Below, piece by piece: positions 2,161-20,000 of a stretch of DNA of 20,000 nt; within the stretch, counting starts at the first letter, position 1, and each line of letters opens with the position of its first letter. The stretch lies in the IMG/VR virus record IMGVR_UViG_3300020727_000702; one strand, written 5' to 3'. Under the pieces are notes generated by a model. It made no database searches and was not told where the DNA came from. It was given only the letters and a program-made list of their open reading frames with translations. This DNA comes from an uncultured virus (IMG/VR IMGVR_UViG_3300020727_000702). Lineage: Duplodnaviria > Heunggongvirae > Uroviricota > Caudoviricetes. The translations under genes were made by a program, and so were the position numbers.

Positions 2161-4074
2161 ATGAATATATTTGATTTGTTCGAAGGCGACTCTGCTCGCG
2201 ATAAATGGAATAAAGAATCCGCCAAACGTGATGCGGCCGCTAAAAAGCGTGAAGAAGAAATGACAGCACGACATAATCGAGGCAAAGAAGATATGTCAGG
2301 CGCAATTGATCGTTTAGAAAAACATTTAAATACTCCTGTTAAAGAACATGATATGTCGGAAGGCTGGAGTGACGCGATTGTTAGTCAAAGAACCGGCCGA
2401 CCACGCACACCCTACTCAGTGTATATCAAAGGTAAGAAGTGGCGAGATTTTGAAAACGAAGATCATGCAGAAGCTGTAGCAAATAAATTACGAGCCAAAT
2501 TCAAAGCTGACGGTCGTGACGCCAGTGTTATTACTATTGCCCCTACTGACTATGATAAAGATATAGTAAAAAAAGAAGCAGCAGTAAACGACGTAAACTT
2601 TGGTCATACAGTAACTAAAGGTGCTTGGATTGTACACCAGGATGGCAAGAAACCAATTAGATTTAAGACACACATCGGCGCTAAAAAATATGCTGAAAAA
2701 AACGGCGGCAAAGTTTACTCAAGTGAGTTCTACGCAGACAAGATTCAATCACAGGTTGATGAGCATGGTGGTGGTGTAAACGCTATGAATAAATATATTT
2801 CATGGCGCAATAGTGCTAACAAAGAACGTGGAATCACAAAATACCAACCTGTAGGCAAACCTGCCGAAAGTTTACGAGAGTTTGCCCTAGGTGATGAAGG
2901 TGAGGAAGATACTTTACTCAAGTTTGCTCGCTTATGGTGGAATGGTGACGAAGCTACACAAAATAAAGTTGAAGAAGTATTAGCCAAGATGGGTTGGACT
3001 ATTGGTGAAAATGAATCTGGCGATGAAAACGATGCTTGTTTTGTTGTTCGCAATGGTGACATGAACGGCGATAGTTATATTGCGTTTGGCAAAGAAGATT
3101 TAAATGAAGGTTCAATGTCCACTGCCGCACATCATCATGCTGGTCCAGAATTTCCAGGATATTGGAAAGGAACTGACTCTGCTAGTTTATCACGTAGACG
3201 TATGGTGGGTGATGATATAGAAGAAGGTATTGAAGGTAACATGACCGTTAAGTCCTCACCACTATCAGAGCCATTACGTAAACGTAATTTTGTTGCTAAA
3301 AATTCTCCCATTACCGGTGCTGGAAAACACACCAATCAGTTAAAAAAAGCCATGGCAGCAGGCCGCAATGCCAAGCATAAAGCACAAACTATTCCATTCG
3401 ATGAAAGTATGAATTTTATGGAGTGGGCAGTAAACAATGACTATAATTTTGCAAAAAATCCCGCTGTTTACAAAGAAGCCAAAGAAGCATTTAAAAAAAA
3501 AATAAACGAAATATCTAAAGATAAAATTGAAAAGTACTACACTGATGTTATTAAAAAACAAGCTGACAACATTGGTATCCAGCCTAATATGTATAGCAAG
3601 CTAGAACCAAAACATCAACGTGGTATTGATAGAGCAAATAATCGTTTATACAAAAATAATGAAGAGCGCGGACCAATAGCGCCGCACGAAACATATTATG
3701 GCGCAATGGATGAAGCCAAAGGTTTAGGTACACAAGTTAAAATCATCAAAGGCAGTGATGCGGGCAAAATTGGATGGATTAGAGAAATTAAACTTGGTTC
3801 TTTTAAAGGAGCTCCAAAAACTTATTATATTGATCTCGAAGATGGTGGGCAAGCAAATAATTTACCTGGCACTGCATTACGCATAATTAAAAACAAAGTA
3901 GATGAAAGTTTACAGCCAGGCGAATACTATGTTTGGACCGTATACTTTGATAATGGCGGTAAACAAAATATTAAAGTAACCTCAGATAATTTTGATCCAA
4001 CAGCATATTATGCCAATCAAAACAAAGCGGTAGTAAATGTAGATTATAATTGGGAGAAACATAATGAAATTTAA
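2161..4074 (+). CDS. Large mosaic hypothetical phage protein with a KOW-like module; possible virion internal polyprotein
   Basis: 637 aa ORF of short modules separated by [LIVMF]-x-E sites (LFE, VKE, MSE, VDE, LRE, LNE, IEE, FDE, INE, MDE, VDE). KOW-like segment GTQVKIIKGSDAGKIGWI. Confidence 0.6.
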   Translation: MNIFDLFEGDSARDKWNKESAKRDAAAKKREEEMTARHNRGKEDMSGAIDRLEKHLNTPVKEHDMSEGWSDAIVSQRTGRPRTPYSVYIKGKKWRDFENEDHAEAVANKLRAKFKADGRDASVITIAPTDYDKDIVKKEAAVNDVNFGHTVTKGAWIVHQDGKKPIRFKTHIGAKKYAEKNGGKVYSSEFYADKIQSQVDEHGGGVNAMNKYISWRNSANKERGITKYQPVGKPAESLREFALGDEGEEDTLLKFARLWWNGDEATQNKVEEVLAKMGWTIGENESGDENDACFVVRNGDMNGDSYIAFGKEDLNEGSMSTAAHHHAGPEFPGYWKGTDSASLSRRRMVGDDIEEGIEGNMTVKSSPLSEPLRKRNFVAKNSPITGAGKHTNQLKKAMAAGRNAKHKAQTIPFDESMNFMEWAVNNDYNFAKNPAVYKEAKEAFKKKINEISKDKIEKYYTDVIKKQADNIGIQPNMYSKLEPKHQRGIDRANNRLYKNNEERGPIAPHETYYGAMDEAKGLGTQVKIIKGSDAGKIGWIREIKLGSFKGAPKTYYIDLEDGGQANNLPGTALRIIKNKVDESLQPGEYYVWTVYFDNGGKQNIKVTSDNFDPTAYYANQNKAVVNVDYNWEKHNEI

Positions 4075-6270: not shown

Positions 6271-6531
6271 ATGTCAGACAGAATTTTTACCGCAGAACAA
6301 ACTAATAAACTTACTCAAGTCATTAATGAAGGCATGCAGGTTATGCAAGAAATTGAAACACTGACTGGCGGATTAAGTGACACTGTCAAAGCAGTTGCTG
6401 AAGAATTGGAAATCAAACCCAACATTCTCAAAAAAGCCATTCGCTTGGCACATAAATCTGAATTTGGTCGTGAACAAGATGACCATGCTTTACTTGAACA
6501 AATTCTCACACAAGTTGGTAAGACACTATAA
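6271..6531 (+). CDS. Small dsDNA-binding protein (T4 DsbA / GapR-like)
   Basis: 86 aa helical protein, DTVKAVAEELEIKPNILKKAIRLAHK resembles T4 DsbA. Strong SD AAGGAG, upstream TATAAT at 6244-6249, next to the polymerase. Confidence 0.6.
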   Translation: MSDRIFTAEQTNKLTQVINEGMQVMQEIETLTGGLSDTVKAVAEELEIKPNILKKAIRLAHKSEFGREQDDHALLEQILTQVGKTL

Positions 6532-6607
6532 ATATTATAGTTAGAAGTAAGAGTCGTTCACTTAAAGAACATGAGACACGGCTTACCGGCCATAAACGGA
6601 GAATAAT
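6527..6607 (+). promoter_or_regulatory. T4-type late promoter TATAAATA plus structured leader of the polymerase gene
   Basis: TATAAATA at 6527-6534. Nested stems GTAAG/CTTAC, GTC/GAC and GTTC/GAAC, plus a CCG/CGG stem overlapping SD GGAG (6598-6601). The start codon is TTG. Confidence 0.5.
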
Positions 6608-10232: not shown

Positions 10233-10955
10233 ATGCGTGATAATCTTTTGGACTTAGTTAGTCATACTTTTGACTTGGGTTGTATTGATCAAGTTAAAGT
10301 TGTTGGAACTGATAAAGAAACAAGCATCAGTGGTTTAGCTGAAGACCGTTCAGTTGTAGTAGAGGGAACTTTGTCTAACCCAGTGGCTGAATTTATTGGT
10401 ACATTTGGCATGCCAAATTTATCCAAACTTAAAATTCTTTTGAACTTACAAGAATATAAGGAAAATGCCAAGTTAACCATTAATCGTAAAGATACTGGTG
10501 CTCCAGATCAACTTAACTTTGAAAATAAATCTGGTGACTTTAAAAATAGCTATCGTTTTATGGCGGCAGAAGTTGCCAATGAGCGTATTAAAACTGTTAA
10601 ATTTAAAGGTGCTAAATGGAATATTGAATTTGAGCCAACAACGGCTGCGATTCAGCGTTTGAAAATGCAAGCGGCTGCTAATTCAGAAGAAAATAATTTT
10701 CAAGCTAAAACAGAAGATGGCGACTTAAAGTTTTACTTTGGCGACCATTCAACTCACGCTGGTAATTTTGTATTTCAAACTAACGTAGAAGGCACACTTA
10801 AACGTGCTTGGTCTTGGCCAGTTAAAACTGTGATTGGCATTCTTGATTTGTATGGCGATAAAGTTATGCGCATTAGTGATGATGGAGCGGCACAGATTAC
10901 TGTTGATTCTGGGCTTGCTGTTTACAACTTTATTTTACCAGCACAATCTAAGTGA
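10233..10955 (+). CDS. DNA polymerase sliding clamp (gp45/PCNA-like)
   Basis: 240 aa with the alternating beta/alpha pattern of clamps. FGMPNLSKLKILL resembles gp45 FxIYDLNxFL, and the C-terminus is YNFILPAQ. Located near the polymerase. Confidence 0.65.
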   Translation: MRDNLLDLVSHTFDLGCIDQVKVVGTDKETSISGLAEDRSVVVEGTLSNPVAEFIGTFGMPNLSKLKILLNLQEYKENAKLTINRKDTGAPDQLNFENKSGDFKNSYRFMAAEVANERIKTVKFKGAKWNIEFEPTTAAIQRLKMQAAANSEENNFQAKTEDGDLKFYFGDHSTHAGNFVFQTNVEGTLKRAWSWPVKTVIGILDLYGDKVMRISDDGAAQITVDSGLAVYNFILPAQSK

Positions 10956-12676
10956 TCAAAGAAAACACCCCAACACCTGAACCAATAGTACAGGACGATC
11001 TTACTGCCAAGCAGTCGGACTATGCATTGTTCCTTCCGGCTCTTAGCGGCTTCTATGGTACTTTTATTGGCAAACAGCGTAGTGGACCTTTTGTAGCTCC
11101 TACTCGTATGCCTGCAAAGATCAAAGATATGGAAATGCTTAACTGGTTAAACAAACAAAAAGGATTATTTCCATACAAGTGGAGTTTGTATTCGGCTGGT
11201 CATGCCAACTTAGATCTCACTAAGCAAGATTGGAACGAAGATATGATACGAAATCGTGACCGTGCTAATACATTTGTATTGGGTGATTCGGGTGGTTTCC
11301 AAATTGGTAAAGGTGTGTGGGCCGGTGAATGGCGTGATCCCAATGGACCAGAAGTTCGAGCTAAGATGGCAGAAGCTCAAGCTAAAGGCATTGAACAAGT
11401 TCCTGCGCTTAAACCAGATGGCACACCCAAACATGATAAAAATGGTAACACCAAGTACACTAAAATTGATCACGTAAAAGATTATCAAAACAAATTAGAT
11501 GCGGCACAGAAAAAACGTGAAGCGGTCCTCACTTGGATGGATGGTATTATGGACTATGGCATGGTTCTTGATATCCCGGCTTGGGTAGAACGCAGTCCGG
11601 CGGGTCGTAAAGCAACAGGTATTGAATCATATCAACAAGCGGTTGAAGCTACCAAATATAACAACGAATACTTTATTAAACATCGCAATGGTAACTGTAA
11701 GTTTTTAAATGTACTACAAGGTGAGAATCACGCACAAGCAGATGACTGGTATGCACAAATGAAAGACTTTTGCGATCCAAACATCTACGGTGATAAAGCA
11801 TTTAATGGTTGGGCCATGGGCGGCCAGAATATGTGTGATGTAGACTTAGTCTTGCGGAGATTGGTAGCCTTGAAGTTTGATGGATTGCTTAAAGAAGGGC
11901 AACACGATTGGATGCATTTCTTAGGCACAAGTAAATTAGAATGGGCATTACTATTAACAGATATTCAGCGTGCCATTCGCAAGTATGTAAACCCAAGTTT
12001 TACTATATCGTTTGACTGTGCCAGTCCATTTTTGGCAACTGCTAACGGTCAAGTGTATCATCAAATAGATATTGAAGACAGACAAAAGTGGTGTTATCGT
12101 ATGAGTTTTATTGCTGACAATAAAAAGTACTCCACTGATACACGTTCATACCGCGATGCTGTGCTACAAGATGGATTAATTGGTCATTTTGATGATAGTC
12201 CTGTTAGTAAAAATTTACAAATTAAAGATGTTTGTTATTATCAACCAGGAATGCTAAACAAAATTGGTAAAGAAGGTAAAACCTCTTGGGATTCGTTTAG
12301 TTACGCATTACTAATGAGTCACAATGTTTGGTTGCATTTAGAATCGGTACAACGTGCTAATCGAGAATACGATGCTGGCAAATGTCCCAATATGCTTGTA
12401 GATGAACGCTTTGATACTGTATACTTTAAAGATGTAATAGAAGCTATATTTTCTGCTCCAGATCGCGAAACTGCCATTGCTATTATTGATTTGTATGATA
12501 AGTTTTGGCAAAGCATTATTGGCACCCGCGGGGCTACAGGCAAAAAAACTGTTAATGCTAGTACCATGTTTAGCAATTTATTTGCTGCAGAAGAACCAGA
12601 GCCAGATGAACATTATCTTGATGATTCTGGATTAGATGAATCTAAACTTGATGAATTGGAAAATAGTAATGCCTAA
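10952..12676 (+). CDS. dpdA: DpdA/TGT-like 7-deazaguanine transglycosylase
   Basis: TGT-barrel motifs in the correct order: LGDSGGFQ (catalytic Asp), MVLDIP, NVLQG, GWAMGG, MHFLG, SFDCASP (second catalytic Asp). Clustered with folE and queD. The GTG start overlaps the clamp stop. Confidence 0.8.
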   Translation: MIKENTPTPEPIVQDDLTAKQSDYALFLPALSGFYGTFIGKQRSGPFVAPTRMPAKIKDMEMLNWLNKQKGLFPYKWSLYSAGHANLDLTKQDWNEDMIRNRDRANTFVLGDSGGFQIGKGVWAGEWRDPNGPEVRAKMAEAQAKGIEQVPALKPDGTPKHDKNGNTKYTKIDHVKDYQNKLDAAQKKREAVLTWMDGIMDYGMVLDIPAWVERSPAGRKATGIESYQQAVEATKYNNEYFIKHRNGNCKFLNVLQGENHAQADDWYAQMKDFCDPNIYGDKAFNGWAMGGQNMCDVDLVLRRLVALKFDGLLKEGQHDWMHFLGTSKLEWALLLTDIQRAIRKYVNPSFTISFDCASPFLATANGQVYHQIDIEDRQKWCYRMSFIADNKKYSTDTRSYRDAVLQDGLIGHFDDSPVSKNLQIKDVCYYQPGMLNKIGKEGKTSWDSFSYALLMSHNVWLHLESVQRANREYDAGKCPNMLVDERFDTVYFKDVIEAIFSAPDRETAIAIIDLYDKFWQSIIGTRGATGKKTVNASTMFSNLFAAEEPEPDEHYLDDSGLDESKLDELENSNA

Positions 12677-14630: not shown

Positions 14631-15146
14631 ATGTTAGATACAAATGAACGACAAGCGGTAACTTATTTTGTAGGGTATGAAGTAGAACATACTATTTGTC
14701 ATGGTATGAAAACACTATTTGTAGTTGGTACACCTCCTGTTGATGAAATATTAGACAAAGCCAAAGCCAACGATTGCAAACATATCTATTTTGGAACTAG
14801 TCAAAGTTTTAACCCGGTCGCTGTATCGCATGAAGAATATAGAGCATGGGATTTAGTAATTGTTTCCTGTTTAGAGGCAGACTACTGGGTAACACTAGAT
14901 TTTGATGTTAAACACGCAGAAGGTATACTTGAATCTAGTTACTGCGAATATCAAAAGTTTGTTCCTATGATTAGCGTAAAACTTCCTTATATTAATCAAT
15001 TTAATTACAACGCTACAATTAAATTAGATGATTTAACTTGGGGCAAAACTAACCCTGGTGTTTGGACACATCAGCTCAATGAATTAATGACTAAAAACAA
15101 ATATACATATTGGGATCAATATACTCAAGATGAGGAAATCAAATAA
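14631..15146 (+). CDS. Hypothetical protein within the modification cluster
   Basis: 171 aa ORF, tightly packed in the operon, globular alpha/beta appearance, no recognised family. Confidence 0.7.
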   Translation: MLDTNERQAVTYFVGYEVEHTICHGMKTLFVVGTPPVDEILDKAKANDCKHIYFGTSQSFNPVAVSHEEYRAWDLVIVSCLEADYWVTLDFDVKHAEGILESSYCEYQKFVPMISVKLPYINQFNYNATIKLDDLTWGKTNPGVWTHQLNELMTKNKYTYWDQYTQDEEIK

Positions 15147-15443: not shown

Positions 15444-15896
15444 ATGGATCAAAGACAACAGATATTAGCAGAAACAGCTATTCGTATTATGGAAAAAGCT
15501 GAACGTAAAATTTGGGTTACGTTTCGCAAAGAAGGGATGCATCGCTATCCAGCGGCAGCCACAGATCCAAACTTATGTACAGCGGGAGAATATGATGTAT
15601 CGTTCCTTGCTAACGCTCACCGCCATATTTTTCATTTCAGGGTCTGGATTGATGTGTTCCATAATGATCGCGATTTGGAGTTCATACAATGTAAACGCTG
15701 GTTAGAAAGTTTGTATAGCAAAGATATTTTAGAACTCGATTTTAAGTCATGTGAAATGATAGCCGATGACTTGTATGTACAAATAGCCGCCAGGTATCCT
15801 GAACGTGCTGTATGGATTGAAGTAGCCGAAGATGGTGAGAACGGTTGCCTCATAAAGTATGAACTTTCTCGCCCAACAAATAGTATTAAATTTTAA
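15444..15896 (+). CDS. QueD-paralogous T-fold protein, DpdL-like (putative CDG decarboxylase)
   Basis: EGMH...FLANAHRHIF (LxxxHRHxF)...SCEMIA...IEVAEDGENG. It has PTPS/QueD-type topology but lacks the QueD catalytic Cys-x3-HGH. Confidence 0.65.
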   Translation: MDQRQQILAETAIRIMEKAERKIWVTFRKEGMHRYPAAATDPNLCTAGEYDVSFLANAHRHIFHFRVWIDVFHNDRDLEFIQCKRWLESLYSKDILELDFKSCEMIADDLYVQIAARYPERAVWIEVAEDGENGCLIKYELSRPTNSIKF

Positions 15897-15905
15897 GGAA
15901 ATATA

Positions 15906-16127
15906 ATGGGTAAGCAACAACACAAACCCAGTGCTCGCGCACTCGCTGTACATGATGATCTAGGTAAGTTTTTGGATTTCTGTGTTGAATACGGATACAG
16001 ATATAATGAAAACGATTTGTATAATTTCAAAGCATATGCTTGGCAACAGTATAACAAATTTGTTCAAGGCAAAAACGCTAAGAATATGTGGGTTGAAGAT
16101 GCACGCCGTTTAGGAAGAGCAATTTGA
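15906..16127 (+). CDS. Hypothetical protein
   Basis: 73 aa ORF with SD AAGGA, overlapping the next gene (TTGA). Confidence 0.65.
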   Translation: MGKQQHKPSARALAVHDDLGKFLDFCVEYGYRYNENDLYNFKAYAWQQYNKFVQGKNAKNMWVEDARRLGRAI

Positions 16128-17197
16128 CCGTTTTTTTAGTCGATCTCGAAAGTGTTTCCACTCGTTATACTTGCGAGTGGAAAACTCACTTACCAACACT
16201 TTTACGCAAGGCAGGACACAATGTTCAAGTTATCTCTGGGCCTGAGGATATTCCTTCAGCCACTACTCCTGGTGCTTTTCTTAATTTTGGTGGCACCAAT
16301 ATATACAAGTCTAGTCAAGTTGAACAAATGGGGCGTCTATTTTGCGCCGGATCAGTACAGCCTGGCGATCACTTCTTGTTTACCGATGCTTGGCATCCTG
16401 GTGTCATCAACTTAAAATACATGAGTGAGTTATTACAGATTCCTGTAACACTACACGGTTTATGGCACAGCGGTAGTTATGATCCTGAAGATTTTCTAGG
16501 GCGTTTAATTGGAGATAAACCTTGGGTTAGATTCGCTGAGAAGAGTTTCTTTGAAGCATTTGATCATAACTACTTTGCTACCGAATTCCATATCAATATG
16601 TTTTGTAAGAATTTGTTACATATTGGAATGACACAAACTATTGATGGTTTTAAAGAGTTAGGAAAGATTGTACAAACAGGATGGCCAATGGAATATATGG
16701 AGGAAACGTTGGCTCCATATAAAAATTTACCTAAACGCGATTTAATCGTATTCCCGCACAGAATCGCTCCAGAAAAACAAGTTGAAATATTTAGAGATTT
16801 GGCACATTGGTTACCAGACTATGAATTCGTTGTTTGTCAAGACCATCAATTAACTAAGCACGAATATCACACATTGTTAGGTGAAGCAAAAATAGTATTC
16901 AGTGCCAACTTACAAGAAACATTGGGAATTAGTTGTTACGAGGGAGCCATATTAGATTGTATTCCTCTTGTTCCCGATAGATTAAGTTATCGAGAAATGT
17001 ATCAAGATAATTTTAAATATCCCAGTGCTTGGACCAAAAACTTTAAATCATATGAATTACATCGAGCAGATATATGTAAAACTATATTTGAAGATATCGA
17101 AACATATGATATTCGAAGACCATACATTGCTAAACAAGCCAAAAGTTTAACCGAACGATTCTTTTCGGCGACAAATTTATTAAACAATTTAAAATAA
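16124..17197 (+). CDS. GT-B glycosyltransferase, GTDC1/QTMAN-like
   Basis: IVFPHRIAPEK, E-X7-E in ETLGISCYE, and CIPLVPDRLSYREM. TTG start overlapping the upstream stop. Confidence 0.8.
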   Translation: MTVFLVDLESVSTRYTCEWKTHLPTLLRKAGHNVQVISGPEDIPSATTPGAFLNFGGTNIYKSSQVEQMGRLFCAGSVQPGDHFLFTDAWHPGVINLKYMSELLQIPVTLHGLWHSGSYDPEDFLGRLIGDKPWVRFAEKSFFEAFDHNYFATEFHINMFCKNLLHIGMTQTIDGFKELGKIVQTGWPMEYMEETLAPYKNLPKRDLIVFPHRIAPEKQVEIFRDLAHWLPDYEFVVCQDHQLTKHEYHTLLGEAKIVFSANLQETLGISCYEGAILDCIPLVPDRLSYREMYQDNFKYPSAWTKNFKSYELHRADICKTIFEDIETYDIRRPYIAKQAKSLTERFFSATNLLNNLK

Positions 17198-17248: not shown

Positions 17249-18049
17249 ATGACATCATTTACAACAGAAGATAGAATTAACGCAAATAAACTAGTTGAAG
17301 AAGCCCCGTATCATCCTGGATACGAAGATGCCGCAATGAATATGAGCGACAAAGGTTACAAAGAAACTAACCTAGCAGACGCTATCCGCTTTAAAATGAA
17401 GCGTGATAAAAAACGTTTTTGGGCTGGTGATAATATTAGTGATTACTTACACGAAGGTGATAAGGAAATCCTAATCAAGGAAGCCACAGAAGCTTTTGAA
17501 AAAGTGTTGGACACACTATTGATTGATCGTGAAAACGATCCTAATAGTCACGGTACAGCCAAGCGACTAGCTAAAATGTATTTTACCGAAATCATGGCTG
17601 GTCGCTATGAACCTGCCCCAGATTGTACAGCATTTCCAAATAATAGCAAGGATAGATATGAAGGTATGTTGGTTGTACGGAGTGAGCTCCGTAGTATGTG
17701 TAGTCATCACCATCAGCCTGTCGTTGGGGTCGCTTATATTGGGATCATTGCTGCTGACAGGCTTATTGGACTTAGTAAGTATACTCGCATTGCTCAGTGG
17801 TGTGCTCGCCGTGGTACACTTCAAGAAGAATTGTGTAACGACATCGCAAGAGAAATAATGAAAGCAACAGGTAGTAAAGATGTAGGGGTTTATATCGAAT
17901 GTGAGCATGGCTGTTGCATTAACAGGGGCATTATGGCTCATAGTTCGTTAACACAAACAGCGGTACTACTTGGGGCTTTTAATAGCGATATGGGTACTAA
18001 GAAAGAGTTTTACGATAATATTAAACTACAATCAAGAAACGGCAAGTAA
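17249..18049 (+). CDS. folE: GTP cyclohydrolase I
   Basis: TAKRLAKMY, SMCSHH (Zn ligands), GLSKYTRI, RRGTLQEEL and HGCCINRG. It has an N-terminal extension. Confidence 0.95.
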   Translation: MTSFTTEDRINANKLVEEAPYHPGYEDAAMNMSDKGYKETNLADAIRFKMKRDKKRFWAGDNISDYLHEGDKEILIKEATEAFEKVLDTLLIDRENDPNSHGTAKRLAKMYFTEIMAGRYEPAPDCTAFPNNSKDRYEGMLVVRSELRSMCSHHHQPVVGVAYIGIIAADRLIGLSKYTRIAQWCARRGTLQEELCNDIAREIMKATGSKDVGVYIECEHGCCINRGIMAHSSLTQTAVLLGAFNSDMGTKKEFYDNIKLQSRNGK

Positions 18050-18753: not shown

Positions 18754-19257
18754 ATGGCAAACCAAGCAATTCAATACAAATATACAAGTACCAAAGAGTA
18801 TCACAACGCATTTCCTTGCGCTTATCGTCAATGGAGAGCAGACAGTCATTGTAACTTAATTCACGGCTACGCATTTAGTATGAAGTTTTATTTTGGCACA
18901 AACGACTTGGATGTGCGTAACTGGGCAGCCGATTATGGTGGCTTGAAAGAACTTAAAGGTATTTTAGAAAGTCAATTTGATCATACTTTACTAGTAGCAG
19001 AGGATGATCCAGAGCTAAACTTTTATAAAGAAATGGAAAAGCGTAAATTAGCCAAACTTACTATCCTTCCTAAACTTGGGTGTGAAGGTCTAGCAGATCA
19101 ACTTTACAAATATGTCAACGGTGTTTATATTCCAGATATGTGGGGTAGTGCTGAAGCTGACCGTTTATGGTGCTATCGTGTGGAAGTTCGCGAAACACAA
19201 TCAAATATGGCTTTTAGAGAGGGGCATAGATGTTGGGACGAAGACCTTTTTGCATAA
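18754..19257 (+). CDS. queD: 6-carboxy-5,6,7,8-tetrahydropterin synthase (QueD/PTPS family)
   Basis: HCNLIHGY, DYGGLK, FDHTLL, GCEGLA and VEVRET motifs. Near folE, strong SD. Confidence 0.85.
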   Translation: MANQAIQYKYTSTKEYHNAFPCAYRQWRADSHCNLIHGYAFSMKFYFGTNDLDVRNWAADYGGLKELKGILESQFDHTLLVAEDDPELNFYKEMEKRKLAKLTILPKLGCEGLADQLYKYVNGVYIPDMWGSAEADRLWCYRVEVRETQSNMAFREGHRCWDEDLFA

Positions 19258-19293
19258 TTTTATCACAATGTCCCTAACAAAACGCACATTTTG

Positions 19294-19301
19294 TATAAAT
19301 A
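19294..19301 (+). promoter_or_regulatory. T4-type late promoter of the endonuclease gene
   Basis: Exact TATAAATA followed by SD AAGGAG and ATG 19320. Confidence 0.65.
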
Positions 19302-19319
19302 CCAGTAAGGAGATCAAAA

Positions 19320-20000
19320 ATGTTCTATTACTTGTATGAAATTAAAAATACCGTAAACAATAAAATTTACGTAGGCGTCCATCAAACAAAAGATATAAAT
19401 GATGGATATATGGGAAGCGGGACTGTCATAAACAGAGCGTATGAAAAATACGGAAAAGAACAGTTTGTTAAAACTGTTCTTGAATATTTTAATACTCGTG
19501 AAGATATGATTAGTCAAGAAATAGAAATTGTAAATGAGGATTTCTTATTAAGAGATGATACTTACAATGTAAGACGCGGCGGAACTGGAGGGTTTGATTA
19601 CATCAACAAAAACGGATTAAACATAAATCACGCACCTAGGTCTGATGAATTTAAGAAGAACTTGTCTGAGAGGATGAAAAACGATAATCCGAGTAAACGA
19701 CCAGGGGCTAAAGAGAGAATGAGTGTAGCAACAAAAAAAGTAATGGAGCAAGGAACTCATCCGTTTTTGGACCCAGAAAAGCAAAGAGAATTATCTAACA
19801 GGCCGAGAAAAGATGGTAGAACCAAATCAGAAGTTTCAAAGGAAACAGCAAGTAGAATGGTAGAAAATGGAACTCATAGTTTTTTGAAAATGAATTCTGA
19901 AAAAATACCATGTGAGCATTGTGGTAAGGTGATATCTTACCCAAACTACAAAAGATGGCACGGAACAAAATGCCGTGAATGGAACGAAGATTTATTTGAG
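19320..20000 (+). CDS. GIY-YIG (Seg-like) homing endonuclease, stop codon beyond the window
   Basis: Not in the ORF track. Manual translation: MFYYLYEIKNTVNNKIYVGVHQTKDINDGYMGSG...QEIEIV...YNVRRGGTGG. It then has two GTH[P/S]FL repeats and a C-terminal CEHCGK...RWHGTKC zinc finger. Open for 227 codons. Confidence 0.9.
   Translation, partial: MFYYLYEIKNTVNNKIYVGVHQTKDINDGYMGSGTVINRAYEKYGKEQFVKTVLEYFNTREDMISQEIEIVNEDFLLRDDTYNVRRGGTGGFDYINKNGLNINHAPRSDEFKKNLSERMKNDNPSKRPGAKERMSVATKKVMEQGTHPFLDPEKQRELSNRPRKDGRTKSEVSKETASRMVENGTHSFLKMNSEKIPCEHCGKVISYPNYKRWHGTKCREWNEDLFE

Follow-up and report, generated by a model that had tools for sequence, protein, structure and literature searches.

WHO elements at the yeast FBA1 gene consist of an endonuclease gene with a host-gene 3′ end upstream and the old 3′ end downstream, the latter being proposed as a second homology arm; later elements displace earlier ones, relics of which remain, and allele-specific cleavage has been shown in yeast (accessible text of PMC7282813 and bioRxiv 10.64898/2026.08.13.744650). 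Gene hybrids are likewise made by the mORFs of fungal mitochondria, as in atp6 of Allomyces macrogynus and atp6, atp9, cox2 and nad3 of Glomus (PMC3630166, accessible sections). In phage T4, the Seg proteins are intergenic free-standing endonucleases that move by "intronless homing" and cut far from their own gene, self and non-self being told apart by sequence substitutions (accessible text of PMC2988022 and PMC13565253), and I-TevI is controlled by an operator over the late promoter and a hairpin that hides the ribosome-binding site (PMC2988022). The accessible text of PMC2988022 describes no duplicated gene end for Seg genes and that of PMC10448857 and PMC13565253 no gene-end replacement in phages; the literature searched, most subscription papers and supplements lying outside its scope, contained no paper on a homing endonuclease that replaces gene ends in phages.

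The locus analysed here lies in a 20,000-nucleotide stretch of DNA from an uncultured virus (the window), which is part of a 47-kb virus contig (G000) estimated to be 14% complete, an estimate that would imply a full genome of roughly 330 kb. DNA of G000 is present in freshwater and lake metagenomes. In the window a queD gene ending RCWDEDLFA* is followed by a 227-codon nuclease ORF (19320–20000) ending REWNEDLFE. The unit delimited below, element A, is about 780 bp long and is made up of a replacement queD 3′ end, a putative late promoter and a Seg-like GIY-YIG gene without a stop of its own.

Element A resembles WHO elements in that replacement 3′ end and nuclease travel as one unit (99.5–100% in three hosts), in that the recipient's own 3′ end is left downstream, though not recognisably in two loci (L089, L090), and in that the 5′ and 3′ parts of the gene have discordant histories (AU p=0.003). 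A displaced A-type tail in L445–L447 and a relic of element A in L427 may be traces of successive homing. WHO elements encode an HO-related LAGLIDADG enzyme with a zinc finger and sit at FBA1, whereas element A encodes a GIY-YIG enzyme and sits at queD; the former replace half a gene in the diploid yeast nucleus, whereas the latter would move during phage co-infection, displaces 9–13 codons and is fused to them in frame. Allele-specific cleavage has been shown for WHO elements, whereas element A is known from sequence comparison. Judged by its layout, element A works like a WHO element without being a member, by enzyme family and by target. With the fungal hybrids it shares a foreign C-terminus and an endonuclease ORF in a coding 3′ end with the native C-terminus behind, the Glomus atp9 case also being of the GIY-YIG type (PMC3630166, accessible sections); those hybrids lie in mitochondrial DNA, whereas G000 is a virus record. 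Shared with T4 Seg genes are the N-terminal GIY-YIG domain, Seg-like best matches and a late promoter with a ribosome-binding-site hairpin (both predicted here), but element A is inserted inside queD with both flanks in one coding sequence, while the Seg genes described are intergenic. Unlike the situation of group I intron endonucleases, the queD stop precedes a 62-nt spacer, and an intron or structured RNA in element A was rejected because Rfam gave 0 matches at E≤1 on L081:1500–3800. The earlier note on this DNA, made from the window alone, had seen here an intron-less way of invading a coding sequence without breaking it; allele comparison bears the layout out, but the principle is not new in biology, given WHO elements and the fungal hybrids.

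Features of the queD locus, in window coordinates
Feature	Position	Strand	Basis or remark
folE (GTP cyclohydrolase I)	17249..18049	+	Pfam GTP_cyclohydroI 6e-38
queD-like gene, 6-carboxytetrahydropterin synthase family, 167 aa	18754..19257	+	Pfam PTPS 7e-13, PHROG 2389
Element-borne replacement queD 3′ end, at least 21 codons including stop	19195..19257	+	63/63 nt identical in G000, L082 and L084
Cys160 codon, replacing family Glu160; candidate immunity determinant	19231..19233	+	allele comparison
Operator-like inverted echo of empty-allele queD codons 153–160	19263..19285	-	17/23, against 14/23 to own tail
TATAAATA, putative T4-type late-promoter motif	19294..19301	+	motif scan
Predicted RNA hairpin over ribosome-binding site (19307–19312) and start codon	19299..19337	+	consensus fold, 7 copies
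Seg-like GIY-YIG endonuclease body	19320..19975	+	PHROG 314 homing endonuclease 4e-46
C-terminal CxxC-x12-H-x3-C zinc finger of nuclease	19911–19973	+	last Cys is codon 218
Displaced native queD tail, the nuclease's last 9 residues	19974..20000	+	host-specific; stop at 20001–20003

Boundaries and spread of element A

The two tail 27-mers of the window have 16/27 nucleotides and 6/9 amino acids in common, exactly as the earlier note had reported. G000 itself differs from the window at 4 of 20,000 positions (19988, 19991, 19994 and 20000), all of them third positions of the final five codons of the nuclease ORF, where the differences are synonymous and leave the protein unchanged. Five loci (L081, L104, L137, L141 and L168) agree with G000 at these letters, as do contigs from three runs (X1, which is possibly the source sample, X5 and X8), with 0 other discordant letters over this site. 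On G000 letters the tail match becomes 17/27 and the synonymous differences fall at R, E and L, so that the R, D and L named earlier hold on window letters only, while the immediate stop looked for past position 20000 is present in G000.

A chance match or a generic nuclease ending was ruled out by tail scores and by nuclease ends at other loci: among 90 distinct sequences following the finger's last Cys in the fetched loci, only six score as queD tails, all queD-linked (+18 to +26 bits), while the 81 lowest-ranked average −42 bits with a best of −17. Unrelated nucleases with the same finger stop a few residues after the last Cys. The idea that every nuclease with this finger duplicates a gene tail was also rejected: by eye, no tail among the other distinct proteins listed resembles the end of the gene upstream.

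The Pfam PTPS match covers residues 18–155 of the 167 in queD, of which G000 has one copy, and the insertion point thus coincides with the end of the PTPS domain core. The tail itself is conserved, codons 155–166 being mostly invariant across 60 distinct nuclease-free alleles with 1–7 codons in use at each. QueD had no match among PDB sequences at E≤0.001, and the relatives in cultured phages are distant ones only (<60%). The folE gene belongs to the same 7-deazaguanine/queuosine pathway cluster. Four further genes of the cluster (10952–12676, 14631–15146, 15444–15896 and 16124–17197) gave no convincing Pfam or NCBIfam match; by motif we take this group to include transglycosylase-like, second T-fold-like and glycosyltransferase-like proteins. 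The cluster suggests a base-modification pathway, which the nuclease may have to tolerate. The next gene after the nuclease, presumably MazG-like by motif, had no NCBIfam match, and the ORF list of G000 holds, outside the window, several further ORFs on both strands that we assume by motif to be nuclease-like.

Ownership of the two tails was read from three phages (G000, L082 and L084) that are identical over the replacement tail (63/63), the spacer (62/62) and 653–655 of 656 nucleotides of the nuclease body. Their queD cores agree at only 257–326 of 420 nucleotides (61–78%), their displaced tails at 19–21/28 and their downstream DNA at 33–44/150 (22–29%). Since the upstream tail is identical while cores and downstream tails differ among hosts, the former is assigned to the element and the latter to the host. 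Upstream identity begins at 19195 against L082 and at 19192 against L084, and the right boundary lies at or just after 19975. On this comparison queD in the window is a chimera of a host 5′ part and an element 3′ end. The earlier proposal that the mobile gene brought a new queD end and pushed a host-derived one behind itself is thereby upheld, but the replacement block extends over at least 21 codons and not nine.

Insertion inside queD, also proposed at the outset, agrees with the relatives: in the best 80 of at least 599 queD matches, 78 end HREW, one ends HRIW and one, with the nuclease, HRCW. All nine distinct element-bearing alleles end HRCW. A nuclease-free queD with Ile160 (L011:2501–3004) represents a third state of the candidate immunity codon. 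The 34 nuclease loci comprise 10 full-length close copies, one C-terminal fragment and 23 distant copies; every full-length close copy lies 62–64 nt behind a Cys-type queD end, and all 23 distant ones lie elsewhere without a queD tail at their end, none (0/23) ending REWNEDLF. The 124 fetched loci reduce to 79 distinct ends, namely 59 Glu without nuclease, 9 Cys with it, 10 Cys without it and 1 Ile. The scan for Cys-type ends was complete (26 loci), while the Glu-type scan returned at least 120 loci and the protein scan at least 599, which makes the Glu:Cys allele ratio a bound only; search-pattern positions are invariant by construction, and unbiased counts come from L001–L080.

A core tree was built from 76 rows, rows being dropped if they had less than 390 nt of core, a stop inside or at least 98.5% identity to another row of their type that was retained. 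The eight element-bearing rows need at least six separate places on this tree, a single clade of element-bearing cores is rejected (AU p=0.003), and the 5′ and 3′ parts of queD accordingly differ in history. The nearest core relative of the window (L001) is an empty allele in which queD directly adjoins the same next gene. Occupied and empty-allele contigs are found side by side within runs: X17 has an L082-type occupied contig and also relatives' contigs that skip the element, their joints leaving out 758–806 nt. These comparisons indicate that element A spread recently and horizontally into distantly related freshwater giant phages.

The junction usually lies four codons earlier than in the window: in L088, L145 and L179 the nuclease is joined to queD codon 155 (R155; KC-REGHREW...), and codon 159 is the joining point in the window, L082 and L084. 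An Arg-Glu codon pair occurs twice, the copies being 12 nt apart, and the shorter form would be explained if the exchange resolved at the second copy or slipped to it. Host-specific downstream tails are recognisable in G000, L082, L084, L088, L087 and L145. In L087, however, a stop directly follows Cys-Arg with the queD tail still behind, and L089 and L090 have other short peptide ends without a clear downstream queD tail (−11 and −9 bits as queD tails, far below true tails; the best of unrelated ends is −15). Because these three end otherwise, the fused tail appears to be a dispensable by-product for the nuclease, and the fusion as a needed nuclease part was ruled out. The original queD tail kept as the nuclease's own end, as the earlier note had it, is thus correct in that the host tail is there, but not as a requirement. 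As read from the alleles, the displaced tail supplies the nuclease's stop codon. In G000 it also carries the likely start codon of the next gene (19996) and a GAGG-type motif, an overlap identical to that in empty allele L043, and the nearest in-frame start of the next gene lies inside the queD tail both in G000-type loci and in 9/9 empty loci with the same adjoining gene; the tail left in place would thus preserve translation of the neighbour.

The nuclease has its nuclease domain at the N-terminus and the finger at the C-terminus. Its match to Pfam GIY-YIG (PF19835/PF01541) is below cut-off; against the I-TevI catalytic domain it scores E 0.001 with the Tyr/Tyr/Gly motif and Tyr-Asn aligned, the catalytic Glu matched only within one residue and the Arg27 region gapped. 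The best matches in the phage collection are annotated Seg-like proteins (34–37%). Against five variants dN is about 0.07–0.09 and dS about 1.0, which indicates that the nuclease is under purifying selection.

Spacer signals and the candidate immunity codon

An inverted echo of the empty-allele queD end lies nine bases before a TATAAATA motif that we take to be of the T4 late-promoter type. It has its best match at the same place of queD in 6/6 spacers, which are mutually related, and in all six it agrees at 16–18/23 positions with the empty-allele majority versus 12–14/23 with the element's own tail. Its score was reached by 3, 0, 0 and 1 of 300 shuffles in G000, L089, L090 and L147 and by 31–32 of 300 in L087 and L088. 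Controls exceeded the window's value in 2/56 unrelated spacers and 1/68 post-queD stretches, and one GC-rich control matched the same place with a score above any element copy. With these controls the stretch is at most suggestive of an operator marking the empty-allele site.

The TATAAATA motif is present in 6/6 spacers and occurs twice in the 47-kb contig, both times on the coding strand, the other copy being at 6527–6534 of the window. The predicted hairpin has an energy of −8 to −15 kcal/mol on read-through RNA versus about −2 on the assumed late transcript; its z score is not significant in the window alone (−0.98) and reaches −2.0 and −3.9 in L088 and L089, and no two-sided covariation was seen across the seven copies.

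Glu160 is found in 59 of 60 distinct nuclease-free alleles (L001–L080), and Cys160 in 29/29 element-bearing loci. The Cys codon is retained in all nine distinct alleles of these loci although codon 162 varies and the nuclease variants differ by about one synonymous change per site. Since the displaced tail of L088 keeps Glu-type codons 155–167, the target must presumably also need sequence upstream of codon 155. An element-A nuclease is lacking behind 16 of the 26 Cys-type ends, and three of these 16 are displaced fragments. The nuclease-free functional Cys alleles number nine distinct ones; none has the exact ending RCWDEDLFA, whose presence in endonuclease-free relatives the earlier note had held decisive against insertion, although this minority does end RCW.... 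Arg159 is written AGR in 10/10 nuclease-free Cys alleles and 39/150 Glu alleles, and one or more of three further rare codons in 7/10 and 16/150, respectively; having these uncommon codons in common with the element's tail, the alleles share descent with it. Such alleles may be scars after nuclease loss between two tail copies, conversion products without the nuclease, or the lineage from which element A came.

Proposed homing and its alternatives

Boundaries, tail ownership, recent horizontal spread and purifying selection on the nuclease are shown by the comparison of alleles. The whole proposal, that element A is an intron-less homing element targeting the conserved last codons of queD, is in our estimation probable. 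An occupied and an empty phage would infect one cell, where the late-expressed nuclease would cut the empty queD, presumably near codons 153–160. Repair would copy the element in, upstream queD providing the homology on the left and the queD tail that remains behind the nuclease that on the right. The recipient would carry a chimeric full-length queD with the element's tail, its own tail being pushed behind the nuclease, where it would provide the stop codon and leave the next gene's start signals intact. The changed site in the replacement tail, presumably the Glu-to-Cys codon above all, would protect the occupied allele from cutting, while the displaced tail would escape for want of the upstream half of the site. 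The nuclease may repress its own gene through the operator-like stretch, and Cys-allele QueD is presumably active. The promoter and hairpin layout, which resembles that of T4 homing endonucleases (PMC2988022, accessible text), counts for homing. Against it counts the right-hand homology, which between sampled hosts amounts to about 28 nt at 68–75%, thin for homologous repair; in L084 the divergence starts with the very first base past the junction. Homing therefore has to assume donors outside the sample or repair by short homology. The nuclease-free Cys alleles, the weak operator support in L087 and L088, the control spacers that outscore the window, the imperfect I-TevI alignment and the want of a clear downstream tail in L089 and L090 also count against simple homing.

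The same Cys alleles fit a reading in which the tail is a carried-along foreign allele: the nuclease would first have settled behind a natural Cys-type queD and would cut elsewhere in or near the gene, the Glu-to-Cys change being a passenger. The nine functional alleles share the element's rare codons, a single origin of the nuclease-free Cys alleles is not rejected (AU p=0.13), and the cut sites of free-standing nucleases in T4 lie hundreds to thousands of bases away from the nuclease gene (PMC2988022, accessible text). However, the Cys alleles need 4–5 places on the best tree and the operator-like echo maps to codons 153–160. In two independent comparisons, moreover, the identical block reaches only 36–39 nt upstream of the Cys codon, so that cut and resistant change would be expected in the block or to its right. 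We regard a passenger tail as unlikely, yet as the most serious of the alternatives. The very short right-hand homology, together with family matches below curated cut-offs, would also suit a cassette moved by ordinary or illegitimate recombination with a nuclease that is inactive or cuts competitor or host DNA; the element has entered at least six unrelated backgrounds at the same codons, crossovers hug it on both sides and dN/dS is near 0.07–0.09, all of which makes this very improbable. An assembly chimera or chance similarity is hardly credible: four window letters disagree with G000 and many related queD alleles coexist in the samples, but the structure recurs in independent contigs and runs, single contigs span the queD end to the next gene (X1, X8), and nine distinct alleles carry host-specific tails. 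A chimera is already contradicted by these contigs, runs and alleles.

A second element and the meaning of gene-end exchange

Another GIY-YIG gene, of 286–287 aa, was found at the same gene end (element B). It matches TIGR01453 above cut-off and aligns with the element A nuclease at 37% over 99 aa only, the two being unrelated. All 20 element B loci found lie directly behind the queD end, which mostly reads ...GFE, and a displaced queD fragment is found downstream in 15 of the 18 in which the nuclease end is covered. In L432–L451 (e.g. L427:2045–2905) element B brings a replacement end of its own together with cargo ORFs, and the queD fragment it displaced measures up to about 30 codons. An operator echo was not found for element B, the best in seven spacers being 5–7 bits.

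In L445–L447 the displaced fragment matches the window without a difference along 63 nt (19183–19245), the longest run among 150 Glu alleles being 30, which argues that element B entered an allele bearing element A's tail. In L427 element B is followed by 69 nt (3232–3300) that are a relic of the zinc-finger end of element A (83% identical). The relic precedes a membrane-protein gene, presumably queuosine-precursor transporter-like. No locus with two intact nucleases was seen among those fetched.

We tentatively propose, as a possibility that falls short of our main proposal, that a WHO-type arms race takes place at the last queD codons of freshwater giant phages: at least two unrelated GIY-YIG elements with their own immune gene ends would displace each other's tails, immune Cys alleles would be left on loss, and element A would carry an inverted operator copy marking its empty-allele site. 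If this reading is true, target and immunity-conferring bases would be predictable and directly testable.

Because both flanks lie inside one conserved gene, element A can enter genomes whatever gene follows. The unit offers a compact testable system: its length of 780 bp is defined, presumably sensitive as well as candidate resistant alleles exist in nature, and a binding site is predicted. Phage marker genes can carry 3′ ends whose history is foreign, and the change Glu160Cys in a metabolic gene of phages would be explained as a product of genetic conflict. A third homing route, a gene-end swap with neither intron nor intein, known from yeast nuclei and fungal mitochondria, would thus operate in phages.
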